Origin: Enoplolaimus lenunculus
Taxonomy: Eukaryota
NCBI GenBank assembly: GCA_030248215.1
Contig: JASANG010003752.1
Span: 310,001 to 374,000 of the forward strand
Direction: 5' to 3'
DNA length: 64,000 bases
Part shown: piece by piece, positions 10,505-32,623 of the stretch
Layout of the letters: each line of letters starts with the position of its first letter
Position numbering within the stretch: position 1 is the first letter of the stretch
Notes under the pieces: generated by a model
Told to the model about the DNA's origin: nothing
Databases searched by the model: none
Seen by the model: the letters and a program-made list of their open reading frames with translations, nothing else
Program-made: the position numbers and the translations under genes

Positions 10505-11868
10505 TGTTGCGGACCACCCAGTTTGTTTTTTTAGAAAAACTTTCGGCCTAAATTTCAAACTAATGATAACTATGTATATTGTTTGCAAGTTTCGACTTTT
10601 TGTTTAACATTACTCCAATAATAACGTAACAATACTGATATAATTAGCCCATCTACGCAGTTTTTGTGTGTTGAAAACAATCTTTTTCAAAGCAGAACGC
10701 AACATTTTATAGTGTTTACGACACCAATAAACGCTTTAATTTTCACCCGCGTTTAGACGTTGGATTAAATAAACTGACAATGTTTTTTATGTAACAATTT
10801 TGCGAAATTAAAAATATTTAAATTTCGATGCGCATTTGACGTTGTTTATGTCTCAATATTGTGCTCAAAGGCTCGTGTTTCGTTAGTTTTAAGCAAATTT
10901 TTTGTATATTTTAGTTTATATAGGCTGTATGTGTCGTCGTGCCTAAAACGTACCGCAACTGGCGTTAATAATGTTTTTTATCCAAACATAAGTTGTTGAT
11001 TAATAATGGTAAGTTGAAAAAGTGTTATTGAACTAAGTTGGAAAACATTAAAGCCAGCATAAACTGTTTAATTTTTTAAATTGCAGTCCTTGCACTTTTG
11101 ATATTGATTATCCTCATTAGCATTTTAAAGAGTATTTTAACAAAAATTCCAGCAATGTTAATGGTTAACAATTTTAAATAGTAATGATGGTGTAGACCTA
11201 AAATATAAAAATATGTTGATAATTGTAGAGTGTTATAATGGTGTCATTAGTGCAAAATGATCTAAAAATTAATAGCTAAAGTGTACTTTTTCAGTACTGA
11301 GAAAAACATTAAAACTGATTTTTGGTTTTTCTTCATTCAAGCGGAAAAATATGTTAAAATTTAATTGCCTAAGAAGTTTAAAAGGCAAAATTTAAAAATT
11401 TTATTATCTTAGAGGTCTAATGAGCCTATCAATCAGGCTTGGAAACTAGAAATTTCGCACTATAAAAGAACAATTTTCAACTAAAAACGGCAGTTGGATC
11501 TCGAGGCGTGGTTGTTTTAAGTCAATTTTGAACAGTTTTATTGGGCAGTTTTTAGTGTGTGCAAGTTTGTTAATCGTTGACTTGAAATTGCTTTTGTCCA
11601 TTATAGAATTGGAGCGTTATTATTTACAATAACATACACTTGGTCAAGTAGTGATACAAATATTCCGTCAATTGTGGATCGAACTTCATTATCGTGTGAA
11701 TCATCTGAACTGTAAGTCAGGGCTGGCTATAGGAATAATGACCAATGTGTTAGTCTCGTTTGCTTAATGGGCGCTGTACGACATATTACATGATAATTTT
11801 TCTGTGGGTGAACTGAGGAGTCTAAAAATCATTAAAAATTTCATAGTCCCTGTATCTGAATCGTAACA
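10505..11868 (+). repeat. 5' LTR (1364 bp)
   Basis: Begins TGTTGCG and ends CGTAACA (imperfect inverted termini); first ~650 bp about 97% identical to 24017 onward by manual count; followed by the PBS. Confidence 0.92.
11461..11495 (+). promoter_or_regulatory. LTR promoter: TATA box and probable initiator
   Basis: TATAAAAG at 11461 with GCAGT ~30 nt downstream; the same arrangement is kept in the 3' LTR (TATAAAAG at 24854, GCAGT at ~24885). Confidence 0.65.
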
Positions 11869-11870
11869 TT

Positions 11871-11893
11871 TGGAGGTCCCACCGAGATTTGAA
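11871..11893 (+). other. Primer-binding site complementary to the tRNA-Gln 3' end
   Basis: TGGAGGTCCCACCGAGATTTGAA, 2 nt after the LTR end, is the reverse complement of TTCAAATCTCGGTGGGACCT-CCA, the conserved metazoan tRNA-Gln 3' arm (recalled from known sequences). Confidence 0.88.
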
Positions 11894-12017
11894 TCAAAAA
11901 TTTTGGAAAAATTTGACTTTCAAATTTTTCTCAGCGGTGGTAGCAGGTATCAAAGTCGGAGTTATTTTAATTTAGTTCGAAATCGGAGATTGAGGTTAAA
12001 AACTCTTGTTAATTTTT

Positions 12018-13943
12018 ATGAAAAGAGCCAGATCGCTAAGTCCAATTCCGGAAGAACCTGCAAGTAATTATTTATCCTATATTAATATTGAAGAGTTAAT
12101 TCCTATATTAGACGTAAGTGTAAGAACACCTAGACAGCATAGATACGAATTTAGAAACATGGATCAACTTCAACAGGATGTCACACACTTGACACAAAAT
12201 GTGAGACAGCTTACTGATGGTATGGCTCATATGAATTCTGCCCTTGCCCAAACTAGGGTAACTGGTACTACTGATACCGATCTGGTAATACATCCGTTTC
12301 ACGGAGGATTAACGGGCCCTGATTTTAACACATGGTTAGAAAATTTTAATTTAATTTGCGCGGCAAAACTGATAGATGATGAGATGAAATTGCGGGTATT
12401 ACCTGCATATCTTAGAGATATTGCAAAGGATATATACGATGGGCTAGCTACTGAGGATAAACGCAGTTTTAAATCAATTTGCACTGCATTAGAGCGTAAG
12501 CTAGCCTCCCCGGAGTTAGCAGTTTATCATGAAGCTGCCTTACAAGGCCGCGAACAAATGGAAGGCGAATCGTTATATTCTTATTTAAAAGATATTAAAA
12601 GAGCGTGTCGACGAGCCTATGCAGGCGAGTCAGAGGAAACGATCCGCCGTTTTATTATTGGGAAATTCTTTTCGGGAATTCGCTCTTCTGAAATTAAGGC
12701 TCAAGTACTTAATGAAATGCCCATGCATACATTGCAACAAGCAGATGATATTACTATGCGTTTAGATATGCAGGCAATAACTTTTCCGAAAACTCAAGGT
12801 ACCCTGGGGATACAAAATTATCTGCCACAACCACAAAATATTGTTAGTACAATACCAACCAATACAGGGCAACAAAGACAGACCAATAATAAACGCATGG
12901 AGCGTTCCCTGGAACACTTGATTCGCACACAACAGGGTTTAATAAACTCTGTAAACCGGGTGCAAAATAAGATTCAGAAGATGGAGAGAAATCATAACAA
13001 AATACGGGGAAATACACATTTTAATTGCAGACAAACAAACCCGCCTAGTCAACAGGCATATAATAGGTGCATTATTAATAATCCTAGAACTACCACAAAC
13101 TCGCCAAGATGTTATACATGTGGCAAGATTGGCCATACTGCCGCAGGATGTCAGATAGCAAGACAAGTACCATTAGATAGCAGTAAAAATTCATACACTT
13201 CAGCAAGAACTGGGTTCAGACCATCTTATAATACTAGACAACAAGCTCAGACATGGAACCCACGACAAACACAGTATTATTCTAGCTCCGCACCCCAACA
13301 AAGTACACAAATACGCAACATAAGTAATGCTGCGGCAGAAGTCGCAGCAGTTTTTAGAAAAACATCAGATGAAACTACGTTGCGTAAAATTCAGAACGAA
13401 TTAGAAGAAACTAAGAAGAAATTTGACCAAGTAAGCAAGGAAAAAGAAGTATTACTAAAACAGAAAGCAATGTTAGTCGAGAAAATTTATCCTGAAGTTG
13501 TAACTTGTGTTGGAATGGTAGTAATTGGTGAAACTAAGGAAAAACAGATAGACCAAACCATGAAAGAAAATCGGAGTGAATCGTTGACTAAAGGAAGCAA
13601 TTTGAATGATTGTAATTTAAATTGCTTGCCCAAAAATCAAAATTCAATTACGTCGGAGATCGGAATTAGTGGTGGTGATAATTCTCAAACAATAGACGAT
13701 ATTAAAGAAAAGGAATTAAGTGTAGCAAAAATTACGAAGCGATATTGCTCACAACCAGATATAAACAAGATAACTTTTAATATTGCAGTTCCTCAAGAAT
13801 CTGTAGCTCCTAAAAGTAAATGTTTTCAGTTTTATAATATAACGGCAAGCAAAGAAAACTATAAATTTTCTGGATATCGTTGGAACAGCCTTATCAGGGT
13901 TTCGAAAGAGGCTTGCAGATCAAAGTTAGCCTCGCATAAATAA
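12018..13943 (+). CDS. gag: Gag (capsid-like domain, CCHC nucleocapsid, coiled coil, C-terminal extension)
   Basis: FNTWLENF...LPAYLRDIAKDIY, MHR-like LQGREQMEGESLYSY, zinc knuckle CYTCGKIGHTAAGC. First ATG at 12018; ends at a single TAA, after which the same frame stays open. Confidence 0.9.
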   Translation: MKRARSLSPIPEEPASNYLSYINIEELIPILDVSVRTPRQHRYEFRNMDQLQQDVTHLTQNVRQLTDGMAHMNSALAQTRVTGTTDTDLVIHPFHGGLTGPDFNTWLENFNLICAAKLIDDEMKLRVLPAYLRDIAKDIYDGLATEDKRSFKSICTALERKLASPELAVYHEAALQGREQMEGESLYSYLKDIKRACRRAYAGESEETIRRFIIGKFFSGIRSSEIKAQVLNEMPMHTLQQADDITMRLDMQAITFPKTQGTLGIQNYLPQPQNIVSTIPTNTGQQRQTNNKRMERSLEHLIRTQQGLINSVNRVQNKIQKMERNHNKIRGNTHFNCRQTNPPSQQAYNRCIINNPRTTTNSPRCYTCGKIGHTAAGCQIARQVPLDSSKNSYTSARTGFRPSYNTRQQAQTWNPRQTQYYSSSAPQQSTQIRNISNAAAEVAAVFRKTSDETTLRKIQNELEETKKKFDQVSKEKEVLLKQKAMLVEKIYPEVVTCVGMVVIGETKEKQIDQTMKENRSESLTKGSNLNDCNLNCLPKNQNSITSEIGISGGDNSQTIDDIKEKELSVAKITKRYCSQPDINKITFNIAVPQESVAPKSKCFQFYNITASKENYKFSGYRWNSLIRVSKEACRSKLASHK

Positions 13944-16940
13944 GATAAATCAGAATATCAAATCGAACATTTTGCCAATACAGAGATATTAGACGATTAT
14001 GTTGTCAAAAAATTGTCACCTTCGATAAAGATCAGTGACTGTAACAACATATCAGAATGCTTCTTAATTACCAACAAAGCCTACAGTGAATGTTTCATTT
14101 GCCCTATAACTTGTTGTTGCGAAATAATTGATATTGAATTATATAAATTACAGGCAGATCCATTTTATTTGACAGACCGATCAAATCAAACCAGTGAAGT
14201 GGTCAGGTGTGACGTTCAAATCGCATTTTCACCGTCACAACACCTACATCTCATGGAACAACCGCAATGTGAGTATATAAACATTACACCTAAGAAACGG
14301 AATTACATAAAAATCAGATTCTATCACGGGGAAAATTTTAAAATTAAGAAATTACAAACAACAGGTATAGGCCCACCAATGTATACTAATACTGACATAT
14401 TACGATTAAGTCTCACCGACCTTACTATATTAGGCCCAGAGTTGGTGCTGGATAATTTGGTCAAGCGAGCCAAATTTCCAGAACCATATTCAAGTAGTTA
14501 TAATCATGGGATCGGTTTTATAGATAAACTGAATATGTATGGATTGTCATATAATGATTATGTTGATACAAAAAGGAAGTTGTCAAAGGAATTATGTGTT
14601 ATTCAAAAAACATTTTTTGACGAATCCCGGACGCCCCCTAGGAGACCTTCAATTAAATATGATTTAGCAACTACTACTCCTAAAAATTTAGAAGGTACGC
14701 CATTAGTTAAGCCACAAAAACCTATAACCAAATTTATAACACCATGGCTGAGCGTGATATGTTTACTTACCATAATTAATACAGTAAATGCCACGATGGC
14801 TGGAGGTTTAAAGGAATTTCACTCCCAAATTTTTCCCGGAGTAGGAATGGGCATAGTGCCTAGCGGTATCCTCCTTACGTCAGAACGTTCAGAGTATGTC
14901 CCGATCATGTTGCATATGCAGCATAGCTTTTACAACTTGAGTGAACCCCCCAGGCTCATTAATCATTCAGACTGTCCTGGTCGCTTCAATTTCATTGAAT
15001 TTACTCACCGATATTTGCAAAAATTTGATTTAGAATTTTCCCAAACCTTTGACCCCAGATTTTACGAAGAATTGTTGAGAGGCGTTTGTCATGATAATCA
15101 AAATATTTGCACGTTTCCAAAAGCAGAACGAAGCAAACGTTTTTTGCCCCTTTTGTTGACAGGATTAATGTCACTGGCAGGCACGGGGATGGGGATTGCA
15201 AATAGCCTCCAGCTTTCTTATCTTCAGCCAAAAATTAGTGCATTAACGCAAGCGGTACCAATACTTGAACATAAAATTGGAATACAAGCACGAGCCATCC
15301 ACCAACTTTCCATTCAAAATCAACAAATTTATACTTTTACCCATAAAGCAATGACATTTTTGGACCACATGGTTGCACATATTACGTGCGAGTTAAAAGG
15401 GTTTGGTCAAGAAATGCACCAAATTTCCCAGGCAAATTTGTTTGTTATGCAAATAGAACGGTTGGTGAAATCTGTTAGTACCGCAAGCTTAGAGGGAAAA
15501 ATAGATTCAGAAATACTAAGTGCCACCCAGATTACCAGATTAATAAGAGCAGAACCTGCTCTACGAAAAACACTATATGAACACGAACCTAGCCTATTCT
15601 ATCAATTTGTTACGGCATACCCAGTAATAGTAAATATTGCCCAACTAAAATTTGGGATCATTTTAGAAATCCCCAAAATTACTAAAAGAGATATTCTCCC
15701 TTTGTTATCTATCTCTAACGTTGGCTTCAATATACCCGAGAAAAATATTACTAACCGCATTAAGTTTCCTACTTATATGACTTATGATAGTCATCATGGT
15801 GTGAACTCATATCTAGAAGTTGTTCCCTCCCTTTGTAAAAGGCTACCGGGATTATGGTATTGCCCGTTGCAGGCTGTACCTCGTTCAGAAGCTAATGAAT
15901 TCCTAACGGCAATCGCGAGATTTGAACAATGGAGTAAATCATGCAAAGTGCAGGTTACACAATTTCGGCAAGGTAACACCTTAGATACTACTCGAGTTGG
16001 TGTAATGGTCCGTACGAGTGATAGATTTGCAAAAGTCACTACTAACCGAGAAGTCCAATTTTCATCACGGAGCGAGAGACTCGCGATACCGCCCTATGGA
16101 GTTTATTTCTTCCCCCATGAGAAATATTCTTTAATAACTGTTGGTGATAGGATAATCACGTCCACAGTACGTGATATACAACATTTTACTTTCAACATTA
16201 GTAAAATTCCCACTCCAAGTTCAAACTTTTCGGGACTCCCTTCTCCACATTGGATCGATATGCTTGATGCCGAGTATCACACTAATCTTAGTCGGGAATT
16301 AACCCGTAGCCAAATCGACCACACTTTACTACCCGTGACCGCGCAACATTCGTCGTTAATGCATATAATCATTGCATTAATCTGTGCGTTAATTGTAATA
16401 TTGGTAACCACATGTTTTAAGAGACGTGACGATATTTGGCGGGTTGTTAAAGGTATTTGGGATAAAAAGGAATATTGTGAATTTTGTTGCAAGAGGAATA
16501 AAAGTAGGTTTAGATATATTCGGCAGGAGATTGAACCAGAGGAGTTACAAGAATTTACAGCACCCTCGCTAAGTATCGTAAGCGCTGAAGAGATATCTCA
16601 CAAGACTGTAGGAATAAATTGTCCATCAAGCCTTACTTCATCTATAGTGCCTATCCGAGTTCGTCCACCAAGGGTACCAACCCCAATGCCTATATTAGAG
16701 ACAAGATTCTCCAATTTTCTGAATAGTTTTAAGGCTCCAGGAAAAAGTGAGACAACAGGAGAAAATACCCTGATAGGACGTATGCCTAATGAACAAAATA
16801 CTTCAGAACAACCTACATGTTCCAATTTATTATCCGGTGCTGCAGCAGCAGTTACTAGGCATAGATATTTTACGGCACTTGGGTACCATAACAATAAACT
16901 ATGCAAAAAGTGGAGCTTTCATAGAGGGAAACAAAATTAA
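13944..16940 (+). CDS. env: Cys-rich unknown domain plus envelope-like class I fusion glycoprotein (baculovirus F / errantivirus env-like), in the gag frame
   Basis: Internal signal sequence WLSVICLLTIINTVNA (~14745-14792), furin site RSKR (15129-15140) followed directly by hydrophobic peptide FLPLLLTGLMSLAGTGMGIA, heptad region, GKIDSEILS and IILEIP motifs, 6 N-glycosylation sequons, TM helix (16356-16418) followed by KRR. Confidence 0.85.
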   Translation, partial: DKSEYQIEHFANTEILDDYVVKKLSPSIKISDCNNISECFLITNKAYSECFICPITCCCEIIDIELYKLQADPFYLTDRSNQTSEVVRCDVQIAFSPSQHLHLMEQPQCEYINITPKKRNYIKIRFYHGENFKIKKLQTTGIGPPMYTNTDILRLSLTDLTILGPELVLDNLVKRAKFPEPYSSSYNHGIGFIDKLNMYGLSYNDYVDTKRKLSKELCVIQKTFFDESRTPPRRPSIKYDLATTTPKNLEGTPLVKPQKPITKFITPWLSVICLLTIINTVNATMAGGLKEFHSQIFPGVGMGIVPSGILLTSERSEYVPIMLHMQHSFYNLSEPPRLINHSDCPGRFNFIEFTHRYLQKFDLEFSQTFDPRFYEELLRGVCHDNQNICTFPKAERSKRFLPLLLTGLMSLAGTGMGIANSLQLSYLQPKISALTQAVPILEHKIGIQARAIHQLSIQNQQIYTFTHKAMTFLDHMVAHITCELKGFGQEMHQISQANLFVMQIERLVKSVSTASLEGKIDSEILSATQITRLIRAEPALRKTLYEHEPSLFYQFVTAYPVIVNIAQLKFGIILEIPKITKRDILPLLSISNVGFNIPEKNITNRIKFPTYMTYDSHHGVNSYLEVVPSLCKRLPGLWYCPLQAVPRSEANEFLTAIARFEQWSKSCKVQVTQFRQGNTLDTTRVGVMVRTSDRFAKVTTNREVQFSSRSERLAIPPYGVYFFPHEKYSLITVGDRIITSTVRDIQHFTFNISKIPTPSSNFSGLPSPHWIDMLDAEYHTNLSRELTRSQIDHTLLPVTAQHSSLMHIIIALICALIVILVTTCFKRRDDIWRVVKGIWDKKEYCEFCCKRNKSRFRYIRQEIEPEELQEFTAPSLSIVSAEEISHKTVGINCPSSLTSSIVPIRVRPPRVPTPMPILETRFSNFLNSFKAPGKSETTGENTLIGRMPNEQNTSEQPTCSNLLSGAAAAVTRHRYFTALGYHNNKLCKKWSFHRGKQN

Positions 16941-19900
16941 ATTTGGAAAAACAAGCAGGCAAAAAGTCTCATTGCCTGAGAGTATTACAATACCCCCACA
17001 GACGGAAATAATAATACCATGCAGTACAGATGGATTAACAGCAAATGTGGAGCATGTTCTATTTGAGCCGCACATTATGCTACATGCAGAGTACAACTTA
17101 CTTATAGCACCGTTACTATTGTCTAATCAATCAACCATACACATACCGGTACGCATAGTTAACCCATGTAGATATCCGGTGAAACTCTATAAGAATCTTA
17201 CATTAGGACAATTAGAAGCATTGGATAAAAGTTTTATTGTGAATGCAACAGGATACAATGCTAAAGAAGCCAAACTCACTTTTTTGCAGCAGGCAAACTT
17301 TGGTGACCAGCTTTCAATAGAAGATTTAAAACAGTTGGAAAAGCTTTTGGAAGAGTTTTCCGATGTTTTCTCAAAAAGCGAATATGATTTGGGAAAAGTA
17401 ACAGCTGTAAGTCATAAGATTGAAACTTTGGACGCACATCCAATCAAACAACGACCATACCGAGTTCCTCTAAAATTGAAGGAACCGGTTGAATAAGAAA
17501 TTAATAAGATGTTAGACATGAACATCATTGAACCGTCGGTTAGTCCTTGGGCAAGCCCAATCGTTGTTTTACGAAAGAAGGATGGAAAATCACTTCGAAT
17601 ATGTGTAGATTATAGAAGGTTAAATCAACATACAGTCAAAGATTGTTACCCACTACCAAACATAAATGATTTGTTGGATACAATTGGAAAAGCGAAATAT
17701 TTTAGCGTAGGTGATTTAGTATCAGGGTATTACCAAGTACCAATGGAGGAATCTTCCATTGAAAAGACCGCGTTTGTTACACCAATGGGTCTGTTTCAAT
17801 ACAAAACTATGCCGTTTGGGCTCTGCAATGCCCCCGCGACGTTTCAGCGATTATTAGAGGCTACATTGCGTGGACTGCAAGGTCGAGTCTGTACTGTCTA
17901 CATTGATGACATTTTGGTATTTTCAGAAACATTCATTCAGCATTTAGAGCGTCTCCGTCAAGTGTTACAACGTTTGCGCGAAGTAGGGTTAAAATTAAAA
18001 CCGGAAAAATTGCTGTTTTGCAGTACACGAAGTCGAGTATTTGGGGCATATAATATCGAGTACTGGTTTACGGCCAGATCCTAAAAAGACAATACAAGTA
18101 CAGAATTTTCCCATACCGACAGGTTTACGTAGTCTACGAGGTTTTTTGGTTTGGAGGGTTACTACAGACGTTTCATTAAGGACATTGCAAAAATTGCTAG
18201 TCCGTTTCATTGATTACTTAAGAAAAATAATGCTTTTGATTGGAATACAAACTGTCAGCAAGCATTTGAAACTTTAAGAACCAAGCTAACATCACCTCCA
18301 GTGCTTGTCATAGTTAATCCAAACCTTCCTTATATACTTGAAACAGATGCAAGTGGTACTTGCATAGGTGGGGTACTCTCGCAAGAACACGACGGTAAGA
18401 TAAACCCAATAGCTTTCGGAAGTAGAACATTACAAAAAGCCGAAAGAAATTATAGTATAACTGAATTAGAAGCCTTGGCTGTCGTGTATTTTGTGAAACA
18501 TTTTCGAAATTATTTATATGGGCAAAAATTTAAACTTATAACTGATCATTCTGCCTTGAAATGGATTTTAACTAACAAAAATAGTTCAGGTAGGTTGCAA
18601 CGTTGGGCGCTTACGCTAATGGAATATGATTTCACCATTGAGCATAAACCTGGAAAACGCATGAGTCATGTAGAAGCGTTGTCTAGACTTGAAAATGGTG
18701 TTAATGTTGACAGTCATAGTGATACCGAAACCGAAAATATTCATTTCGCTTACGCAATTGGAAAACCATCAACAACACCTTCTAATACTTTAGCAGAAAC
18801 ACAATCAAGGAGTCAAGAACACGATAAGGTTAACTCAGATAGATATGAACGGTTTGCTGAAATGCAGGCAAAGGATCCATATATTAGCACAATATTACAA
18901 TATCTATTGCAAGGTAAATTACCTGATGACGAAAAGACGGCTCGTTATTTAACACTTTCGAGGCCAAGATTTTTCACGCATAATAATTTGTTATATCACC
19001 ATTACCCTACTCTCCGTGCAGGACCTCGGATAGCTTGGGAGCAGTTGGTCGTACCAGAAAATATGAAGCAGGAAATTTTATCGGCTCATCATGATGATGT
19101 TGTCGGAGGACAGCATTCTGGAATCTCCAGAACATACCATAAGATACTCCCAAAATATTATTGGGAAGGAATGTATCAGGATGTCGTCAAATGGTGCAAA
19201 TCTTGTGTTGATTGCTGTACTCGCAAGCATGGACCACATCGGCCTAATGCACCGTTAGTTCCTATTCCTACAAACGAGCCAAACCACACCTATCATGTAG
19301 ATGTTCTAGGACCCTTACCAGAATCATACAATGGCAACAAATACGTTATCATATTTGTTGACCGGTTCACTAAATATCCAGAAGCAATTTGTACCCGAGA
19401 TCAGAAAGCGTTTACTATAGCCAAACTATTTATGACGGAAATAGTATGTAGACATTCTGCACCTTTTGCATTAATAAGCGATAATGCTCCTAATTTTAGA
19501 AGTGAATTATTGGACGAAATTACCAAAATTGCAGGTACTCGAAAATTTTTTACTACCCCCTATCGTCCACAGACCAATGGAGTTGTTGAACGAATTAATG
19601 CCACATTCATGCAAATGATAAGCCAATATGTGGATACAGCTCAACGAACTTGGGATGAGTTTGTGCCATACGCATGCTTGGCTTATCGTATAAGTGTAAA
19701 CGAAACCACTGGATATAGTCCTTTTAGTTTGGTTTATGGCAGAGACCCTAGACTACCAATAGATATATCTTTGCCAGTATCAAACCGAGGTTACATTGAT
19801 GAGGATGACTATGCTAGAGATGTTAGATTGGCTTTATATGATGCATGGCAGTTAGCTGCAGAAAACATAACTAAAGCGCAACAAGTAATGAAGGAAAGAT

Positions 19901-20229
19901 ATGATCAAAAAGCTATTGATCCAAGTTATAAAATTGGCGATAAAGTTTTGTTACATACCCCTTTTTCAAAGAAAGGAAAAACCCATAAACTTGCCCATCA
20001 GTGGCAGGCTCTTTTTGAAGTAATTGATATTAAATATCCAAATGTAGTAATTAAGTCATTAACAGCTAGGCAACCTAAGCCATTGAAAGTTCATGTAAAT
20101 CGTATAAAGCCTTTTTACGATTCACCCTCTCATATTCCTATTGCAGGAACCCTTACTAAGAGTGATAGCCGTGTAGTACACGAAGCAGATCCAAATTTAG
20201 AAGCAGAAATAAGTAATGATTCAGAGTAA
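16777..20229 (+). pseudogene. pol: Disrupted pol: protease C-terminal remnant, spacer domain, reverse transcriptase, RNase H, integrase
   Basis: LLGIDIL; RT motifs SPWASPIVV, RICVDYRRLN, MPFGLCNAPATFQR, YIDD; RNase H ETDAS / ELEALA / TDH; integrase HHCC and D-D-E (HVDVLGP, ISDNA, GVVER). Lesions: TAA 17494, +1 frameshift ~18010, -1 frameshift ~18148, TGA 18211. Confidence 0.95.
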
Positions 20230-20429
20230 TGTTAATATTATAATGTTAATTTTATTTTATTTCAGAATCGTCAACAATCGTCAATCGCTAACGTCGAGCT
20301 CGTTTCAACCTACACCCAGCCCACACCTATAAACAATCACATAAAGTCCAATAGGACGCTTTACTATATTCAATTCTATTGCACAATATACACAACACCG
20401 CACTTTAAACACTTATAGCAAATGACAAC

Positions 20430-23400
20430 ATGGCAACATACACCAAGGACATTCTAGAGTTCGCAGCAACAGTATGCCTTGCGGACATCCTACCGGAAGA
20501 ACAACGAAAAAACTTCCAGAATTGGCATGGAGTAAATGCCTATATTCCAATGGACACTTTAGTAAAATTTGCCCCGAGATATCCAAATAACGTAGAAGCC
20601 ACGATCACTGATTTTATTTCACCGTCCAAAGCCACGTCCTACAGAAACTTTTGTATGGTATGTTTATGTCCGATCCACGATTCGCTACACTTGGTTTCGA
20701 CACGACATCTGTTTATGTCGAGTAGCCAATTGTTCCGCCTGAATGTTACCGACGAACGAAGACTGCTGTTTCAGCAGTGGATAAAAGAGCACGGATTATA
20801 CCATGAGCATAAAGTACTGAAGAATCTGAACGCCGTGTTAACGTTTCCCAAGATTTCCTCCACAACAGCGACCGCTGTTGGGATGCATGCCCAATTATCA
20901 AATCAAGGGTACGATATACCAATTGTCTTTGGAAACTCGGCAACTGGATCCCAAGACCTAACGTTCCATTTGACGATTCGAAACAAAGGTGCCGTTAGCA
21001 TAGAATACATAGGCGTCCATACAATAGTGAACGGTGCAAATGGTAATAAGTTGCGTCCGATATTTGAAATGCCAACGAACTGCACGCACCAAGAAAAAAT
21101 AATGATAACAATCGAATCACAAACACCTGGAATACAATTCTACACTCTCCAAGTATGGGTTGAAGCCAAACAGTTCGGCAAGAACTCTGTGCTATTGCCC
21201 TTATGGTGCGAAGTACGCTGGAACTGGCACGATTACCACTTAGAACACTGTATTGCACGATATCTCGAAGACATTGCCCGAGTTCGACCCAAACAGACAG
21301 ATGGTGTCGCATTATCGTCTATACCAGACAGTCTATTTAATCCACCATTGATACCAACAGGAGAAGGATCGGAACAACGTGTTTGTAAGCCAGCTCGGTT
21401 TACTCAATCGTGTTTTACTCCATACTTCAAGGCCTGGGAACGAAAAGATACAACAATGCGTAATCATAGTGAAATCGCAGTACGCTCAGTGGACATCCAG
21501 TCACATGGTGGTTTCGATGATCACAATGTACAAATAAAAGACATTGAAGCAATTCTAGACAGCGACGCAGTGATTACAAAGGACAACTTAGGACACCGAT
21601 GCTTGGCCGAAGTCATTGGACAAACACAATACGACGAAGATGTTCCTGAACGATGTTCTATAATATCAACGCAAATTTTACCAGAAGACGAAGTCAACGA
21701 CATAGGGACCTTACAATCAGATGAGTCCGCAATATATGTGAGTTCCAAAGTGCCGAGCCGAGAATATCAAAATATTAGAAGTAAATCAATGACAGATCGC
21801 CTTCGCATTGTACATCCACGGTGGGATGCCAAATTACCAGCTTATGTAGTAGGTGAAAAAAACGATGATGATCAAATGGTGACAACCGTGCAATTGAAAC
21901 TTAACGCTGGACTGAAGAAAATCGTAGAATCCATGGTTGAAAGCGAATCGAGGCGAGTTGACACAAATCAGCCGTTCCTAATTCCGATGCCAAGTATAGT
22001 AACTGGATACCTTTTGGCACTGTATAAAATGCTTCTGATCAATGAAGACGATGAAGCAAAAGTAGAGACAGCCTCAGCAAATGTCGAAGATAATACGGAA
22101 ACGTTTCGGGACAAATCTAATGTTAACGACAACAGTATCACAAATTTATCAGAATTATCCGAACCGGATATAACATTAGTCGATGAAATCAATGAAAGTG
22201 AATGTACAGCGTCGATAGAAACATCCGATATAGATAATCCACCACCAACAAAAGTGACAAAATCAAATTTTACAACCGAACGACTACAAGCCTCGCAAGA
22301 TGAAACGATGACCAATGAAGACGACCAATCATCCATCAAAAAACGATTCAAGTACGACCTCAAACGAAGTTGGCACAAGATCATCAATCACATGTTTGGA
22401 CACGATTCACCAGCCAAACAATATGAAAAAAGGACATTACCAACAACAATATACAATTATACCGAACAGTTGGATCCAGAACAAAAACAAATTCTCGACG
22501 CAATAATAAACGGTGATCCGATAATAGCTTGTCAAGCTCCACCTGGTACCGGAAAGACACACGTTATCGCCCTAATAATGGTTTTAATGAACACCGTTTT
22601 TCCAGAAGAGCGATATCTGTGTATAGCTCCGACGAATGCAGCAGCAAACGTTTTAGCTAAGAAGATTCAATCGTATTTTAAGAAGTTGTTTGGTCAAGTT
22701 CCACCACAATCGTTATTACGTATGGTTCGAGAAGGTTACCCAATCGATGAACTGGGCGAATTAATACAACATTCGAATTTCGTGGCTGCCGATACCGAAA
22801 GTAGCGACATACAAGCTGATTCCCGAATACCTGAACACAAGATACTGGTTACAACAGTGGATCTAGCAATTATGAATCTACTTAATCATCGAAAAACACT
22901 CGCAGACGCAGGACTATTCAAACTTCTTGTAATCGATGAAGCTGCTTCGGTGGATCTACCGCGAACGTTGTTAGCAGCCTTATTGGTTTCAAACGGTCAG
23001 ATCGTGATGCTTGGCGATACAAAACAGTTGCCAGCCTACATAACATCGCCAAAACTAAAATCAGTCGCTGGAGACGAATCAGGAATGGAGTTCATTAGCA
23101 GAGCAGCCAGTAAAGCGAAAAGAGTAAAACTTAAAACACTTAAGCGAAATTACCGAAGTGTGGCAAGTATTTTGGGCCCACCAAGCGCAATCATATACAA
23201 AGACGCACCACTGATCGCTGAAAATCATGATCAATTGAGCCAACAAAATGAGCAGTTGAATGACGCTACAAATGGAATGTTAAACACCGTCTTATTTCCA
23301 GCAAGGAATGGCGTATCATTCGTGCATGTTGAAGGAACAATGATTCGGCATGGGAGTAGTTTATACAACATCGCCGAGATCCATCACGTACTCGAAATAG

Positions 23401-23975
23401 TAAATAGAATGATAAAATTAGGGATTCCGCCCCATAGCATCGGAATAGACGCAACGTACGCGGCGCAAAGTAAACTGTTAAAGAAACTGCTAACTAAACA
23501 ACAACCAGAACTACGAATAGGGTGTGCGAACACGTGGCAGGGCAACGAATGTGATTTCATGATCATTAGCCTCGTACGGTCCGACGGATTTTATGATACA
23601 TACGGTCAAGAATGTGATCAAGGATTCCTGCACGATTTCCGACGACTGACAGTAAGCACAACCAGAGCAAGGCGGGGACAAGTGATCATTGGAAATACAC
23701 TGCGATTTCTATATCACCCCTTAATCATGGAAACACTTCGAGCATGTCACGCCTACGATGGATTCATAAACGACTATCAGACTGAAACACCCCAAATAGT
23801 TCAAAACCGAATTCAAATCGCGTTAGCAATCACAAACTACATACATTTACACATATGTGACAGTTGGCAAAAAGATCCGGATAACTGTAACAACGACCAT
23901 ACTGTTGGAGCAGCGGCACAAAACCCCAATCAATACTACTGCACGGATCATACATCGATTCCAGAAAGATTTTAA
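20430..23975 (+). CDS. Superfamily 1 helicase, UPF1/DNA2/NAM7/MOV10-like, 1181 aa, intronless, inside the LTR element
   Basis: Motifs in the correct order: I QAPPGTGKT (~22533), Ia IAPTNAAAN, II VIDEAA (22935), III LGDTKQLP, NYRS, NIAEI, IGIDATYAAQ, V TWQGNECDFMIISLVRS, VI GFL..RRLTVSTTRAR. N-terminal CxxC-x8-H-x5-H. Confidence 0.93.
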   Translation: MATYTKDILEFAATVCLADILPEEQRKNFQNWHGVNAYIPMDTLVKFAPRYPNNVEATITDFISPSKATSYRNFCMVCLCPIHDSLHLVSTRHLFMSSSQLFRLNVTDERRLLFQQWIKEHGLYHEHKVLKNLNAVLTFPKISSTTATAVGMHAQLSNQGYDIPIVFGNSATGSQDLTFHLTIRNKGAVSIEYIGVHTIVNGANGNKLRPIFEMPTNCTHQEKIMITIESQTPGIQFYTLQVWVEAKQFGKNSVLLPLWCEVRWNWHDYHLEHCIARYLEDIARVRPKQTDGVALSSIPDSLFNPPLIPTGEGSEQRVCKPARFTQSCFTPYFKAWERKDTTMRNHSEIAVRSVDIQSHGGFDDHNVQIKDIEAILDSDAVITKDNLGHRCLAEVIGQTQYDEDVPERCSIISTQILPEDEVNDIGTLQSDESAIYVSSKVPSREYQNIRSKSMTDRLRIVHPRWDAKLPAYVVGEKNDDDQMVTTVQLKLNAGLKKIVESMVESESRRVDTNQPFLIPMPSIVTGYLLALYKMLLINEDDEAKVETASANVEDNTETFRDKSNVNDNSITNLSELSEPDITLVDEINESECTASIETSDIDNPPPTKVTKSNFTTERLQASQDETMTNEDDQSSIKKRFKYDLKRSWHKIINHMFGHDSPAKQYEKRTLPTTIYNYTEQLDPEQKQILDAIINGDPIIACQAPPGTGKTHVIALIMVLMNTVFPEERYLCIAPTNAAANVLAKKIQSYFKKLFGQVPPQSLLRMVREGYPIDELGELIQHSNFVAADTESSDIQADSRIPEHKILVTTVDLAIMNLLNHRKTLADAGLFKLLVIDEAASVDLPRTLLAALLVSNGQIVMLGDTKQLPAYITSPKLKSVAGDESGMEFISRAASKAKRVKLKTLKRNYRSVASILGPPSAIIYKDAPLIAENHDQLSQQNEQLNDATNGMLNTVLFPARNGVSFVHVEGTMIRHGSSLYNIAEIHHVLEIVNRMIKLGIPPHSIGIDATYAAQSKLLKKLLTKQQPELRIGCANTWQGNECDFMIISLVRSDGFYDTYGQECDQGFLHDFRRLTVSTTRARRGQVIIGNTLRFLYHPLIMETLRACHAYDGFINDYQTETPQIVQNRIQIALAITNYIHLHICDSWQKDPDNCNNDHTVGAAAQNPNQYYCTDHTSIPERF

Positions 23976-24003
23976 AGGTAAGCCATTGCAGGGCAAAGGC
24001 TTT

Positions 24004-24016
24004 AAGGAGGGAGTGG
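24004..24016 (+). other. Polypurine tract
   Basis: AAGGAGGGAGTGG immediately before the TG of the 3' LTR. Confidence 0.85.
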
Positions 24017-25217
24017 TGTTGCGGACCACCCAGTTTGTTTTTTAGAAAAACTTTCGGCCTAAATTTCAAACTAAAGATAACTATGTATATTGTTTGCAAA
24101 TTTCGACTTTTTGTTTAACATTACTGCAATAATAACGTAACAATACTGATATAATTAGCCCATTTACGCAGTTTTTGTGTGTTGAAAACAATCTTTTTCA
24201 AAGTAGAACGCAACATTTTATAGTGTTTACGACACCAATAAACTCTTTAATTTTCACCCGCGTTTAGACGTTGGTTTAAATAAACTGACAATGTTTTTAT
24301 ATGTAACAATTTTGCGAAATTAAAAATATTTAAATTTCGATGCGCATTTGACGTTGTTTATGTCTCAATATTGCGCTCAAAGGCTCGTGTTTCGTTAGTT
24401 TTAAGCAAATTTTTTGTATATTTTAGTATATATAGGCTGTATGTGTCGTCGTGCCTAAAACGTACCGCAACTGGCGTTAATAATGTTTTCTATTCAAACA
24501 TAAGTTGTTGATTAATAATGGTAAGTTGAAAAAGTGTTATCAAACTAAGTTGGAAAACATTAAAGCCAGCATAAACTGTTTAATTTTTTAAATTGCAGTC
24601 CTTGCACTTTTTGAGATTGATTATCCTCATTAGCATTTTAAAGAGTATTTTAACAAAAATTCCAGCAAAGTGAATTTTATCAGTACTGAAAATAACATTA
24701 AAATTGATTTTTGGCTTTTCGTCACTCAAGCGGAAAAAAAAAGTATACTAAAATTTAGTTGCCTAAGAAGTTTAAAAGTTAAAATTTAAAATTTTATAAT
24801 CTTAGAGGTCTAATGAGCCTATCAATCAGGCTTGAAAACTAGAAATTTCGCACTATAAAAGCAGCAGTTTTTAACAAAATTTAGGCAGTGTTTAGTCAGG
24901 TTTGGGCGTGAAAGTTTCATTTAGTTATTTTTTCTGAAAAGATTTTCCGCTTATTATAGACCGCGGGTCGTTTTACTGAGTGCATCAAGTTGTCAAAGTT
25001 TTACAATTATCACGTCTATGGTTTTCGTTGCGTCTGATCAACGTGTACCGAAATTGAATTGTAAGTCAGGGCGGGTACTAAGTGTAATAGTTAATTGTCA
25101 TGGACTTGTTTGCCTTATGGGCGCTTCACTACTTTTTCTTCGTTTATTTCACAAAGGCTCTACTGCCATAATTAATAAATAAAAAAAATCAATAGCCGTT
25201 ACCTTGTAATCGTAACA
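24017..25217 (+). repeat. 3' LTR (1201 bp)
   Basis: Begins TGTTGCGGACC after the PPT and ends AATCGTAACA like the 5' LTR; lacks ~123 bp present at 11156-11278. Confidence 0.88.
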
Positions 25218-28111
25218 CACCTATGATTAACTGGGTGAAACGTGCTACATACATTTCAAAATACAATCACTGGTCAACCCAAAAATTTTTAAAAATAGAC
25301 TAAAAACTGTCAAACGCAACCAGACTTTGAAAGTTTATGTTTTGAAGTTGTTATATCTTCTAAGCGTAACCCGTATTTAATGACCATATTCTCAAATGTG
25401 TATGTAGGACCTATTACCATTTGGTAAAAGGCACGATGTAAACCGGATATCCGTTTTCGTTTCCGGTAAAAATAGGTGTTCGTTTCCGTTATAGGAATAC
25501 TGGAAATTCAGTTATTAATGCGACGAAAATTAGTTACAAATCACGTGTATATTTCCGCAATTTTTTATTGCAGAAATGGCGCAATAGTTCGAAATGAAAC
25601 AAAAGCCTGGCGAATATATGCACGCCTCAATAGTGTGGCTAAAAATAAAATATCTTTGAAACTTTTAAACTTCAGTATTTGTTTTCCATTTCCGTTATTT
25701 TGGTCACTATCCGTTTTGTTATTTTTACTATCCGTTGACTCCCTGGTGATAGTTCCTGTGACTTTGGACCAAAAATTGTGATATGTTCAAAATTTTGCAC
25801 AGATTTGGTACTGTTTGCAAGCATAACGACGGACAAAATTTTTTCACACATACCAAACAGCGAATCCAATTGTTAAACCCTTTTCCGAAAACTTTAAGGT
25901 AAACTACATTCAGAGCATAACCCGCAGGTATGTTGCATTTTTAAACGCTGCACGATGTACAAAATTGCGCCCGTACAAAATTCGAACTAAAAGTTAATGC
26001 TATGGGTTTTCAACATAACCGGTAAATTAACGGTAAAATTAGTATTATGAGCAAAGTCAATATAATATCACGAAGCCACCACTAGTAAATGTAAGCCTTT
26101 TCTAAGTGCACTTGACCTTAAAGCTTTGTTTAAGCTAAATAAAAAATTCCTGCCCGACCATGTTTAGGACTAAATCGCCGAATGCGGAATTAAATTTATA
26201 CAATGTCACACTTTATATTTTGACAATAACGATTACACCTGAAACTAAACTGATACATTGCATCAATACCCATATATTTTTTGATAGCGCAAGAGCGATT
26301 TTTTGAACGGTGTCAAAATAATTTAATGCATTCTGAAAATTGAATCTAGCCAAATTGTAATGTATTCTTTTCTGAAAACAGATCTCGCAGCCAAGCAACT
26401 AAAAACAACCAGAGCACAACAAAATCTTTCCACACGAATATCAAAACATGCCAAGTTTCAATAGTTGCAAACGAAAACAAGGTAATAATGTTGTTCGAAA
26501 ACTGATAAACCTTCTCCGATAAATATCCTCAAAACAATTGTAAACATAATGTTTTCATAAACAATTTTGTTTCGCAATTCTTTGAAACAATTAGAATTGT
26601 GTTTTCGGCACCCCATACCAGCAACACCTCAAAATCAGGTTTGCAAATGCGAGGCCACCCACCTCGGCTTTATTATTTTTTGGTCTACATATAAATAAGT
26701 AGAAACATTGTTCACATAAGAACTGAATATTAGATTCTGGTTAACGGAGCTCAGAAACATATCCAAATATCCGGTATAGGACACTGCAAATTATCGATTA
26801 ACGTGATTAGTGAAGGTCGTTATTCAAAAGAAAATGGAACAATTAAAATGTCGTCATGCCACATTTCCTAAAATGTAACTGGATCCTATAGCGTGACCGA
26901 CCGCATATTAATAACCGAATACCGGAACCGGGTGAGAACTTTTTCCGGAACTGAATGCTAACCGGATATAATGTGTAAATTTTTGCTTTGTTAGCACAAT
27001 TTATATTTAAATGAACGTTACTTTCTGTGTTAAAAATTTACTGGTCAGCAAAATGTTTAGTATTTTCACATGTGAAAAGCAGTGATATTTTGGAACAGAA
27101 AGAATAGTAAATATTTGGTATTCATACTCACATTCAAATGATACGAGTTTGTTGCTTCAAATGAACCTCTTGAATGCCGGCGCTCAATATAGCTAGTGAT
27201 AACTGATTACGTACACAAAGATATTTTTCAAAACTGCTACCAACCTCAAAAATGTAAACAGATTGATTAAATGACCGTCATTTATATATCAACAATGAGG
27301 TAAACATTTTCGAATGTATTATTTGAGATACTGAAATTGAGGCAAACAATTCTCGAGTAACAAAATTTCTAGTTTGAGAAAATTTATTGTTGTTGAGGGT
27401 TGTTTGTGCCGATGCGAACAATTTACATTTCTGGTTGTATTTGAAGCTTGGAACGGTATGAGTTGAGCAAGCAACTGCTGATTTCGTAAAGATTGTATTT
27501 TTAAACAAGCCGAGCTGAATAATATTTCTGCTTTTGTTATTTTGCGAAATGTTTAGCCTTGGACAACAAAACCAAAATTCTACGTGCATACGTGGAAAAC
27601 ATCCGGAACGTCTGGTAGTGCCTATATGATCAATCGCGCAAATTATTAGAGGTTTACGGCAGCAAAAAGCTTTCAGGAAAATATACAAAAAGAAGTTGAT
27701 CGTAAACATTTCGTACTTGCCAAAATTACTCATCAGACGGCTTTATGGCTACCGTTATGTTTTTAAGTTTTTATTTGAACAAAAGAATTTCATTATTGTT
27801 CATAGCATAAAACTTTGGATATTTTAAAGACAATTTATACATTGCATGTTCAAATGGTAATTCAGCAGTAGTCATATAATACAAAAAGAAATTTAGTCAA
27901 ATTTCTTGATCACGTTAATAGTGAAATTTGCAGAATTACTTTACTTTTTTACTATAGTTTCGTCGCAAAAAATACATTTATTCGTTGCATTCTATAATCA
28001 TTCGTCTGTTATTGACACAGATTAGGGCCCTCACAAGTGTCGACTATTTTCCGCCGTAATCTACTAACCAGTTTGTGTAATATACCATTTAGTAATGTTT
28101 GCTATAATCCT

Positions 28112-28310
28112 GGTCCATGTATAGATCAGGGGCGGACAGTTTTTCGGTAGGAATCCAATAGAGTAAGCTTAAGTTTTAGACTAATCTTTGTTTAGACTCA
28201 GTTTAGGCTTAGGTATAGGCTTTTCCTTGCGCTTAGGCTTGCGCTTAGGATTATGCTTAGGCTTGCAATTTGCTTTTACTACTGTTAAACTGCTGTTCCT
28301 TACATTAAGC
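28112..28310. mobile_element. Degenerate Merlin-like TTAGGC MITE
   Basis: GGTCCATGTATAGATCAGGG start and internal TTAGGC variants; right end eroded. Confidence 0.6.
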
Positions 28311-28975
28311 ATGTGCTATTTACTTCAATATGGGGTAAACATTTTAACATGACAAAAACATTTTTCTGATTTGTGGCTTCTGGCAATGAGAGTGTATCAT
28401 TAGAGATCAGAGTGGGGGTATGGTTTTCCCTCAGGTCTACAACTAAGATAAGTACTCATACATCGTATCTATAACCTAAAACAAATGTACACAACACGAA
28501 AAGTTGCTCATTTTGTAGGTATTTTGCTTGTGTTAGTGTTTGAGCATATACACTTGTCTTGTTTTCACCAGGGTACAACCGAAAATCTAAGGAAATGCGC
28601 CGGAACTTTTTTGGCTCAGTTTGTGCGCAAGCAACGTACCACGAAATCTTTGGTACATCCCAGTTGAAAAAGAATAACAGGCTTTAAGTATTAGCCAACT
28701 ACCCTTTAAGATTAAAATTTATTTTCGGCTCGCTGGTTTCGAGCTAAAACTGTGGCTCTTGTAGTATTTTTCACGTACAGCTTTCGTAAATTTTCAAATT
28801 TATGACGTATGAAATAAAAATTAAATTCACGAAAAGCTTAAAATTTTCGGTCCATCCGCTTCAGCGAGATGTTTCGCAACATTTATTTTTATTCTAAAAG
28901 ACTGTTCTCGACATATATATCGAAGGTTAATCTGCTATTCAGGTCACTGAGCACAGATATGCCGCAGGTGTAAGT

Positions 28976-29601
28976 TGCGTAATATGCCAAGAGATTTTGA
29001 ACCCGGAGAACTATAGTGTGCACCTGTATGCATTTGCAAAACTGTGATTCACCCAACTTGTCAACTGGACTATACCGCTTCGCGTTAGCTATTAAACCAA
29101 GAACCAAAATTCTGCATTTGCCGTGAAACTATTTTTGTTTTAGTAACTAGCGAACTGGAGGACACAACTTTGCCTAGGACCAGTCATTCGGCGTTGACTC
29201 AGTTAATTGATGCTGTAGTCGCTGTATTAGATGACGATTATGTTGACGAAATAACAATTATTAACGATATATGGTCTGGTTATTCAGTGATGATGATGAT
29301 GTAGAAGACGATAGTAACGATGAAGACAACACACCGTAATCAGTAAACATATGATGTATTTTAGACTATTAATATGTCTAATTACATTAATGTATTTGAC
29401 ATTTTCGGCATAAGCAATAACACTATTTATCAACAAAAATTCGCTGTTGGCAGCACCTGTGTTATCTGTGTAGAACATTTCGAAGAAGGACAACTATTAT
29501 GTCTACCAAATTGTTCCTGTTAAACTATCATCCACCCACAGTGCTAGCATTATAATAAAGACCGCCAACAGCTAGGCCAACCCCCTAAACGCAGCATCTG
29601 T
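28976..29601 (+). pseudogene. Decayed intronless ORF with two homologous RING-variant (C4HC3-like) zinc fingers
   Basis: 28976-29121 reads CVICQ/DFEPGEL*CAPVCICKTVIHPTC...EPKFCIC (one frameshift, stops). 29458-29601 reads CVICVEHFEEGQLLCLPNCSC*TIIHPQC*...PPKRSIC. An Asp-rich stretch lies between them. Confidence 0.7.
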
Positions 29602-29792
29602 CAGGAATTGCAAAGGGTAAACCGTAAACATGAAGCGTCCGAAGCACAAACGGTGAATTACCATTTACCATCTGCACGTGGCGGTGATAATATGGTTTGT
29701 TTATTATTATACACTCCTGTTTTCCGTTCAGCTGCGCATGCCATTTCTTCATTATGAAATATAAGTTTCATATAGTTATTATGGCGTGACAC

Positions 29793-30163
29793 CAGGGTAC
29801 AACCGGAAGTCTGCTTCAGGCTGCGGCAAAAAATCCTCCTCCAGCTCCGGTAGAATTTTTGCCGGAGATTCCGGCAATTTCGGTATAGTAAAATTTTGCA
29901 TAATTTTGCAAAATTTATCTGTTTAGCGCGTTTCGTTTTGCTTTTGCCACAATTTTCAGGAAACAATTTCCGAAATTCGCAAAAAATTAGCGTCAAACCA
30001 AACAACTTAACAACATATTGCAGATATTGGCTAAAATTAACTAAGTAACCAGCATTTTTCTATCTATTTCGCCTCACCTCCGGCTCCGGCTTCGGCTCCG
30101 GCAAGTTTCGTTGACCTCCTGCTCTGTCTCCGGTATTTTTTCCCTACTTCCGGTTGCACCCTG
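29793..30163. mobile_element. hAT-type MITE
   Basis: CAGGGTACAACCGGAAGT...ACTTCCGGTTGCACCCTG; TSD CGTGACAC/CCTGACAT (6/8). Confidence 0.8.
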
Positions 30164-30524
30164 CCTGACATCCTAATGAAAACTGTTCTGTTGTCATTTT
30201 TTACCAACTTTGTTGCATCTGTATTTGTAATTCCAATACCGTAACAAGACAAATTATTTCTAAATAAAGTTTTTAACAATACGATTCTAATTCAGCGTTA
30301 AACTGATTTTCATCCAAGACGTCGCATAGCGATTGTTCATGATCCACGGACTACATGTGAGCTGGTGTTGGTCTGAAATGATTGTTGAACAATACAATTA
30401 ATGACAGCGCTACCACCGCCTGCTGTGCCCTAGACATCGTCGTTTGATTTTGAATCATTTGACGATCCAACCTTCTTTTGTACACGGAACGCAGCCAGTT
30501 AAATACTCTTGCCTTAATATGAGT

Positions 30525-30707
30525 GGCCCATGTTACTTCAAGGGGCGTCCAGATTTCTGGTGGGCCTATAAAAGTGTAGGATTTAATTCTATGACATTTT
30601 CTGCTTAGGCTTAGGATTAGGAATACGTTTTTACAACGCTTAGGCTTAGGCTTAGGCTTAGGAATACGCGTAATTCCACAGTTACGCCCCTTAAAGTAAC
30701 ATTGGAC
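30525..30707. mobile_element. Merlin-like TTAGGC MITE (opposite orientation to 51089)
   Basis: GGCCCATGTTACTTCAAGGGGCGT...ACGCCCCTTAAAGTAACATTGGAC with internal TTAGGC repeats. Confidence 0.75.
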
Positions 30708-31700
30708 GACTAATAGGTTCTTGATCAGTATATTTTGTCCAGAGTCTATGTAAAAATATGCCGGGAATCGAATATTGCAGTAAACAAGGCGGATGTTAAC
30801 ACAGGTGGGGCTCTAAAAAGGAGATACAATTTTTTCACATCCACGGAAACATAACATGGATTACTCATGAATACATAAAAATATCAAAGCCCATTTTTAA
30901 TGCATAGAATATACCTGGCTCGTGCCCCAGAATATTGTTTCGTAGTTACAAATATCCGGCACCACGCTGACAGCAATTAAACAGTATATAAGATCGTGTC
31001 TAAAACGTAATGCCACCAAAAACTAAATACGTTTCCTAAGCTGAATTCTTGTTTGCCATTTGGCGGTTTTGTTTGCGCTTGCAACCTTATATTGTGTAAC
31101 TAAAGTTTCTGACGAAGTATTAAAATAGATATCTTAGCTTGGGCTTTAACTGCTAGTATTTCTTTGGGCGCCTATACAGTAGGCTGGAGTTGCGAGAGAT
31201 TTTGCATCGAGGACGGTAACTATATCAGTAATTTGCATTATTGGATTAGATATTTATTTGACTCGTATACAAAGTATTGATGTTGTCACTTTAATTAGGT
31301 TTTCAGTTTTGAATTTTGGGACGGGCCTAATTGATAAATTTTCTGTTTTTTGGCGATTCTATACACTAGAATATGCAAAGAGGAAAATTTTGGCGGAAAA
31401 CTGGTAAGGTCCACCTTACAAAATTTCAATTTTGCGCTATCGGTGCAAATTTTTCTAAATTTGTCATGGTCGGCATTGGAACGTTTAAAAAATTGCACCT
31501 GCAGCGTTGGTTTGCGCTTCATAGAGTTCTCAGTTAGCGATCATTTTCTTCGATTGCAAACGAAATATTCCAAATTAATAAATATATATTACATAAGGTA
31601 AACGAGCGTTGTGCTCTAAATCAATTGGTTAAGACGAGCGCTACTGCGGAAATAATGTGATTACCAGTTCTCCTTTCACTGCGCATGGGTAAGTACAAAG

Positions 31701-32424: not shown

Positions 32425-32623
32425 GTACAAAGATAAAGCTTTCAGGGGACGAAAATATCATTACGGGTGGCGTTCACTATCCGCGACCATCTAGAACTCC
32501 CCTCTTGCGCATGTGTGTCTGTAAATATTTGACTTAATATCGTAAAGTTTCGCGTGTAACATTTTAGCAGAACATGTTAATATATATTCGATAATACGAT
32601 ATACGGACATAATTAAAAATATT

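Follow-up and report, generated by a model that had tools for sequence, protein, structure and literature searches.

What does a complete RNA helicase gene do inside a retrovirus-like element, between its integrase and its 3' long terminal repeat (LTR)? The question is raised by a stretch of 64,000 nucleotides of contig JASANG010003752.1 (assembly GCA_030248215.1, Enoplolaimus lenunculus), referred to below as the window, in which an LTR element of 14.7 kb was found at positions 10505-25217. The gene order of the element is LTR, primer-binding site (PBS), gag, env of F type, pro, pol, helicase, polypurine tract (PPT) and LTR. The LTRs, the PBS, the PPT and the pol order of protease, reverse transcriptase, RNase H and integrase (PR-RT-RH-IN) are those of Ty3/Gypsy elements (Metaviridae). 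We tentatively read the helicase, with a probability put a little short of even, as an anciently captured RNA translocase of the MOV10 lineage, an accessory gene product that would strip host silencing and decay factors as well as structure off the element RNA.

The helicase gene within the element

The putative MOV10-lineage RNA helicase is encoded on the plus strand (20430..23975) by a single uninterrupted and intronless open reading frame (ORF) of 1181 aa. Pfam domains AAA_12 (E 2.5e-31) and AAA_11 (E 1.3e-19) were matched, and the top PDB sequence matches are Upf1/NAM7 and SMUBP-2. Helicase motifs were located at 22470 (Q), 22533 (Walker A), 22626 (Ia), 22923 (Walker B, with its DE intact), 23010 (III), 23148 (IIIa), 23526 (V) and 23640 (VI). 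The ORF thus possesses motif Q and motifs I-VI in two RecA-like domains together with AAA_11/AAA_12, as in UPF1-like helicases of superfamily 1B (SF1B). Because all motifs are intact, the protein is read as a putatively active translocase, and the motifs argue for this over a dead decoy. The start codon lies exactly 200 nt past the integrase stop (20229), the stop codon lies 28 nt before the PPT, and the PPT directly abuts the 3' LTR. Both the intact 1181-aa frame with all SF1 motifs and its placement 200 bp past integrase and 28 bp before the PPT had been claimed from the sequence-only reading, and both are borne out.

The N-terminal half is less clearly defined. A C2H2-like motif (aa 74-93) is followed by a probable immunoglobulin (Ig)-like sandwich (aa ~148-245), a stalk and beta-barrel (aa ~387-520), an acidic linker (~541-640) and the RecA-like core (~680-1110). 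Pfam hints of Ig-like domains in this half are weak (E 0.05-0.11), and an Atlas search of residues 1-560 gave no match. No match to UPF1_Zn_bind, the N-terminal CH zinc domain, was found in the ORF by Pfam, and none to the MOV-10 Ig-like, helical and beta-barrel domains by Pfam or hhalign. Of the domains named for checking in the sequence-only reading, AAA_11 and AAA_12 were recovered, but not MOV-10.

The helicase ORF very probably belongs to the LTR element family. It is followed by the PPT and then by an LTR whose U3 region is 97.8% identical to that of the 5' LTR, and because of this adjoining pair it is tied to the LTR family even if the copy in the window is a mosaic. An independent nested insertion was rejected, with no flanking repeat above chance: the longest word common to both helicase spacers has 6 nt in direct and 7 nt in inverted orientation, and 1620 of 2000 shuffles reach at least 6 nt. 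The earlier view of the helicase as part of the replicating genome therefore holds, with repeats within chance and a depth like that of pol.

Contigs from three DNA runs (X1, X2 and X3), which come from at most two samples of one study and possibly from the source of the window itself, were mapped on the element; note that contig depth is not equal to copy number. In X1, depth is 37.9 for the unique flank contig and 400.6 for the pol contig. Two helicase contigs, at 343.3 and 399.4, differ from the window at 1 and 0 positions, respectively. Summed depth bins over the integrase-helicase junction are 686 and 684, as a rough figure. A rough estimate is about ten family copies, for helicase and pol alike. 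A diverged helicase contig of X3 displays 122 substitutions and no gap over 638 of its 813 nt (81% identity). The non-coding LTR pair, compared with another aligner, shows one gap event per 4-5 mismatches, and since the X3 contig is gap-free while the LTR pair gains gaps, the divergence tentatively points to selection on the reading frame. All helicase motifs are also retained in comparison with relatives at 33-37% identity.

Relatives and lineage of the helicase

A total of 8291 matches with E ≤0.001 were obtained from 1.84 billion representative proteins, of which only two reached ≤1e-30. These two best relatives, P0005 (37%) and P0006 (33%), are unnamed ENA proteins. Word-index protein searches with the helicase gave only 4 distant matches, or long cellular helicases. 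Locus searches (78 metagenome and 4 viral loci) gave generic helicases only, with similarity to reverse transcriptase (RT), RNase H (RH) or integrase (IN) in 0 of 82, and the viral contig searches gave no close relative.

Phylogenetic analysis was performed with a 171-row FastTree tree, with a 54-row mixture-model tree chosen from it after removal of most redundant rows and of P0032 and P0062, and with a smaller tree of 36 rows without P0017 and P0040, which have the longest stem. The trees are unrooted, do not give donor or direction, and have nematode ERI-6/7 and nidovirus sequences outside them. In the 54-row tree the helicase forms a clade with P0005, P0006, P0017 and P0040 (support 100/99), and P0064 is sister to this clade (97/91 with 54 rows, 94/89 with 36 rows). 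The clade, P0064 and 18 rows of MOV10/SDE3/Armitage type lie on one side, against UPF1, SMUBP-2, SETX-like and HELZ proteins on the other (100/100 and 100/99 with 54 and 36 rows). Trees that hold the helicase clade with UPF1 were rejected by the approximately unbiased (AU) test (p-AU 0.0006). Profile scores for the helicase are 494 for MOV10, 400 for SMUBP-2 and 352 for UPF1, the profiles being of unequal depth.

On these comparisons the helicase is to be placed beside MOV10/SDE3/Armitage, not UPF1. The sequence-only reading had called it UPF1/MOV10-like: the cellular UPF1-like type stands and the trees, run against UPF1, MOV10/Armitage and HELZ, resolve it to the MOV10 side, whereas a grouping with UPF1 does not. 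UPF1 orthology was rejected on the AU test and on the lack of a UPF1_Zn_bind match by Pfam. A nidoviral origin was rejected as well: in searches with the element helicase the coronavirus helicase chain is far weaker (E 0.048) than cellular helicases (5.6e-18), with no nidovirus row in the trees. The assignment to the MOV10 lineage appears new. The position of the clade, next to the sampled cellular MOV10s and outside their group, suggests an old capture.

P0064 (JGI, 2875 aa, on a 13.4-kb contig) is a single ORF in which a Gypsy Pol (PR-RT-RH-IN) carries the helicase in frame at its C-terminus. Judged from its domain order, it would be a second, independent link between this helicase lineage and Gypsy elements. 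Its beta-barrel region matches MOV10 (97.5%). The pol of the element was matched in three of 288 retrieved proteins, namely P0064, P0163 and P0164. The last two (ENA, ~4100 aa) are giant ORFs that combine RT and NUDIX with a helicase of UPF1-like type. P0163 lies far from the MOV10 side in the 54-row tree, as do both in the 171-row tree, and since their helicase falls off that side it is best taken as a separate capture by LINE-like elements (long interspersed nuclear elements). P0017 and P0040 (ENA, 29-31-kb contigs) have the Walker B DE changed to EE and a C2H2-like finger at the N-terminus; their ATPase is possibly altered or reduced. In the FastTree tree the clade also took in P0032 and P0062, which were excluded afterwards as a suspected meeting of long branches. 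P0062, from a 2.4-kb contig and labelled as a protein of a bacterial metagenome-assembled genome, combines a divergent SF1B helicase with a NADAR domain in one fusion. The element helicase, P0005, P0006, P0017, P0040 and the Pol-fused P0064 possibly constitute a retroelement-borne helicase clade, which would likewise be new.

Proposed role and alternative explanations

Movement in the 5'->3' direction on single-stranded RNA is established for the MOV10 family, and the element helicase would move in the same way. Its protein would be made from a spliced subgenomic RNA that joins a candidate donor GTAAGT in the LTR (11712..11717, + strand) to a candidate 3' acceptor with a T-rich tract and TTTCAG (20260..20265, + strand), that is, from 11712 to 20265. 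The donor is retained in both diverged LTR versions, where it recurs at 25061, and the acceptor lies 165 nt before the helicase ATG, with one weak out-of-frame ATG in between (20422, 8 nt ahead of the start). Acting on the long 3'-extended genomic RNA, the helicase may then compete with the host ERI-6/7/MOV10 pathway. Published work provides the setting. ERI-6/7, a nematode homologue of MOV10, is required for the small interfering RNAs by which C. elegans silences LTR elements as well as viral env genes. MOV10 itself is believed to clear 3' untranslated regions (UTRs), and MOV10-type proteins are restriction factors (PMC7084138). Weak silencing suppression by viral-type helicases of insect LINEs was described (PMC6338049). 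An RNA-clearing role is favoured because of the intact motifs, the silencing of LTR elements and viral env genes through ERI-6/7, and the clearing of 3'UTRs by MOV10. A counter-defence function, raised already in the sequence-only reading, is plausible.

A bolder version, which we regard as doubtful, is that the ancestor of MOV10, a restriction factor of Gypsy elements themselves, was taken up by these elements long ago, giving rise to a retroelement-borne clade over distant hosts and to a dedicated suppressor of ERI-6/7/MOV10 silencing, here alongside an F-type env unreported for nematode gag-env-pol elements. With an LTR element that encodes a MOV10-lineage helicase, the question whether animal retrotransposons carry dedicated suppressors of RNA silencing is open to direct test, as this one intact ORF could be expressed by itself.

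Several observations weigh against the favoured role or its premises. Profile comparison of the N-terminal ~620 aa of the helicase with MOV10 N-termini gave no similarity (probability 0.1%), whereas the N-terminus of P0064 does match (97.5%). The structure model made from five sequences is weak, with a mean predicted local distance difference test (pLDDT) score of 41; it shows sandwich, stalk and barrel in the MOV10 order, stalk and beta-barrel at moderate confidence only. The helicase clade stands beside the sampled cellular MOV10s instead of among them, and every branch is long. The intact motifs fit a role in replication equally well. In run X2 helicase contigs reach a depth of 123, some five times the 24-25 of the RT contigs, and the IN-helicase and helicase-LTR junctions are bridged by none among the 24 contig pieces listed, with 8061 further pieces beyond these.

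Foldseek with the weak model retrieved SETX, ZNFX1 and UPF1 from PDB and a giant-virus SDE3-like protein as the top match from BFVD, which were not used as evidence, and a single-sequence fold (pLDDT 32) was of no use. Loose ends in X2 resemble an amplification adaptor, so that the X2 depth may be uneven. Internal deletions through env and pol, with joints at 15897-19585, occur at substantial contig depth; these joints and the deeper 3' part in X2 hint at non-autonomous copies that keep the helicase.

The same origin and family are compatible with a replication factor, in which case the helicase would be packaged with the ~13.5-kb genomic RNA and unwind it for packaging, primer annealing or reverse transcription, with no anti-silencing role. 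The sister helicase of P0064, fused in frame behind integrase, would enter particles together with RT, the catalytic motifs are intact here, and the element is long (14.7 kb). In the element, however, the helicase has an ORF to itself, preceded by a candidate acceptor, and nothing visible links it to Gag or Pol. Related nematode gag-env-pol elements measure 10-13.5 kb from LTR to LTR in a paper that names no helicase in them, although it did not seek extra ORFs (PMC13524379). We consider this explanation serious but on balance unlikely.

A passenger gene, recently transduced from the host (e.g. as a spliced ERI-7/MOV10-like mRNA) into a young family and useless to the element, is improbable. 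X3 contains the gap-free helicase contig of 81% identity, the proteins closest to the helicase are a Gypsy polyprotein and unnamed products of single ORFs instead of annotated host genes, and no remnant of poly(A) is visible. These points stand against the lack of introns, a GC content at third codon positions of 0.38, which exceeds the 0.26-0.35 of gag, env and pol and is nearer to an ORF outside the element (0.44), and the near identity of the helicase among family copies, which leaves little time for neutrality to show.

The remaining explanations draw on the state of the window copy. The 5' LTR (TG...CA, 10505..11868, + strand, 1364 nt) and the 3' LTR (24017..25217, + strand, 1201 nt) are 97.8% identical over the first ~650 nt (U3), followed by a 124-nt indel and ~78% identity over the remainder. 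The diverged 3' halves (11154-11868 and 24667-25217) keep a GTAAGT donor-like block. Since both LTR versions occur at high contig depth in X1, they suggest two LTR subfamilies in the element family. No matching 4-6-nt repeat, as a target-site duplication (TSD), was found in the flanks of the element. Identical LTRs with a TSD are thus lacking in the window copy, which would make this copy a recombinant or chimera and does not touch the family type. Compared with the high-depth run contigs, pol shows 19 differences in 1702 nt and the helicase a single one in 2293 nt (Poisson p 2e-10). Because of this divergence step, the diverged LTR 3' halves and the absent TSD, the window copy is read as a mosaic. 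It is probably a recombinant of the two subfamilies, though subfamily recombination and assembly chimerism would both explain the mosaic.

The helicase could instead benefit the host or the resident element, by limiting its own or rival elements or by aiding antiviral defence, as proposed for helicase-bearing insect LINEs (PMC6338049). We give this little probability. MOV10-type proteins do act as restriction factors (PMC7084138), the window copy has kept its helicase intact but not its gag-env-pol, and the 3' part seems to be retained by copies with internal deletions. But the contrast between helicase and pol in divergence is better explained by recent recombination with a young copy, or by a collapsed assembly, than by domestication, under which silent sites would still be free to drift. 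The possibility that the pol-helicase junction joins a helicase-free element to a separate helicase-LTR unit through assembly or amplification is very improbable: the strongly different LTR 3' halves, the missing TSD, the abrupt drop of divergence between pol and helicase and the unbridged junction would fit it, but depth is continuous across the junction, and the PPT and the LTR with 97.8% U3 identity after the helicase belong to the same LTR family even in a mosaic.

Envelope, other features and known systems

An env gene of class I / paramyxovirus-F type (13944..16940, + strand) was found between gag and pol. Its best Atlas match is Fusion glycoprotein F0 (score 0.96, 218 of 256 features), residues 160-730 aligning to paramyxovirus-type clusters, while plain Pfam and PDB sequence searches with env gave no match. 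The protein has a signal-like stretch (~14721-14777), a furin site (15129), a fusion peptide (15141-15197) and a C-terminal transmembrane segment from ~16326. The helicase as a replacement of env was rejected, since the F-type env is present between gag and pol; the earlier description of the helicase in the slot normally used by env stands for its position, but not for a replacement. An F-type env in a gag-env-pol layout appears new for nematodes and departs from the pattern reported for nematode gag-env-pol elements.

All other features of the element are on the plus strand. The PBS (11871..11882) is of tRNA-Gln type, its reverse complement being the Gln_UUG_CUG 12-mer of supplementary file 2 of PMC13524379. 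The gag gene (12018..13943) has Retrotrans_gag and a CCHC knuckle, and its terminal stop is in frame with env. The protease-region ORF (16777..17496) gave a weak Spuma_A9PTase match (E 0.015) and is out of the env frame in the window copy. The reverse transcriptase (17497..18084) contains YIDD and is broken in frame towards RNase H, and RNase H with integrase (18214..20229) is of Ty3/Gypsy type, with Ty3 Gag-Pol as the best PDB match (E 6e-57). The PPT (24004..24016) has 13 nt. In the window copy gag and env share one frame and PR and RT share one, but stops separate gag from env and precede RT, and the frame is broken within the protease region and again, more than once, from RT to RNase H. 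Searches for tRNAs and Rfam families gave no match.

In the window outside the element, 66 copies of TTAGGC (19 expected) and 61 of TTTCAG (32 expected) were counted. We take these to be nematode telomere and splice-acceptor words, and because of their excess the host, judged from word counts, is probably a nematode. Host exons in the window belong to an ADP/ATP translocase (1519-3161, + strand) and a sodium:solute symporter-like gene (40216-42272, - strand). Repeats were noted at 45553-46068, 28138-34463, 49021-56196 and 25441-25716, comprising interspersed TTAGGC-rich sequences and, next to the 3' LTR on its right, a family of short repeats in very high copy number.

The closest known systems are the NERVs, non-canonical endogenous retroviruses of nematodes (Sacco et al. 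2022, J Gen Virol 103:001739, PMID 35550022). In these, gag, env, pro and pol are reportedly joined in one continuous ORF, and part of the members reportedly have a further large ORF for a Upf1-like helicase, interpreted as a transduced host gene. The combination of LTR element and helicase is therefore probably already described, and the earlier impression that it was undescribed is probably wrong. The element also has a large Upf1-like helicase ORF, reportedly an optional NERV feature. Another feature of this group is a chromadorean nematode host, for which the two word excesses given above speak only as signs of a nematode. A MOV10-type helicase in a Gypsy element was not found in the literature searched, which is weak evidence of absence as most subscription papers lie outside its coverage, and the available part of a bioRxiv paper on Atlas viruses has no mention of a helicase. 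NERV-type elements have a metavirus-type RT and env before pol (via PMC13524379), and the element shares both. Nematode GAG-ENV-POL errantiviruses have the same gene order, and the tRNA-Gln PBS is identical to several Caenorhabditis entries (PMC13524379). However, 36 of 36 rows there are of ENV_HSV/gB type, and nematode gag-env-pol elements are reported with this class III env only, whereas the element env is class I F-type by the Atlas match, furin site and fusion peptide. That paper uses the word "helicase" nowhere, neither in its main text nor in seven supplements. The element works like a NERV-type env-bearing metavirus, and it is not filed as a member because its env is not of gB type.

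With cellular MOV10, MOV10L1, Armitage and SDE3 and with ERI-6/7 the helicase has in common the grouping of the SF1B core (for sampled cellular members, ERI-6/7 being outside the tree); its putative beta-barrel ahead of the core and its probable Ig-like sandwich also suit their layout. It differs in a core identity of ~30% at best, a long stem, the lack of a MOV-10 Pfam match, a non-alignable N-terminus, and in being intronless and element-encoded. TRAS/Jockey LINEs of insects and a small number of Ty1/Copia fusions carry SF1 helicases for which silencing suppression was proposed (PMC5563155, PMC6338049). Like the helicase here, these helicases are accessory RNA helicases of retrotransposons with full SF1 motifs, but they derive from virga-like RNA viruses and are fused to ORF1 or ORF2, whereas that of the element is of cellular MOV10 type and has its own ORF within a Gypsy element. 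Bdelloid LTR elements carry ORF3 enzymes (DEDDy nuclease, GDSL esterase) or a paramyxovirus-like F env (PMC5408684), and so resemble the element in an enzymatic ORF past pol and in an F-type env in a non-insect Gypsy element. Their enzymes are different, and their env lies past pol as an alternative ORF3, whereas env and enzyme occur together in the element described here.

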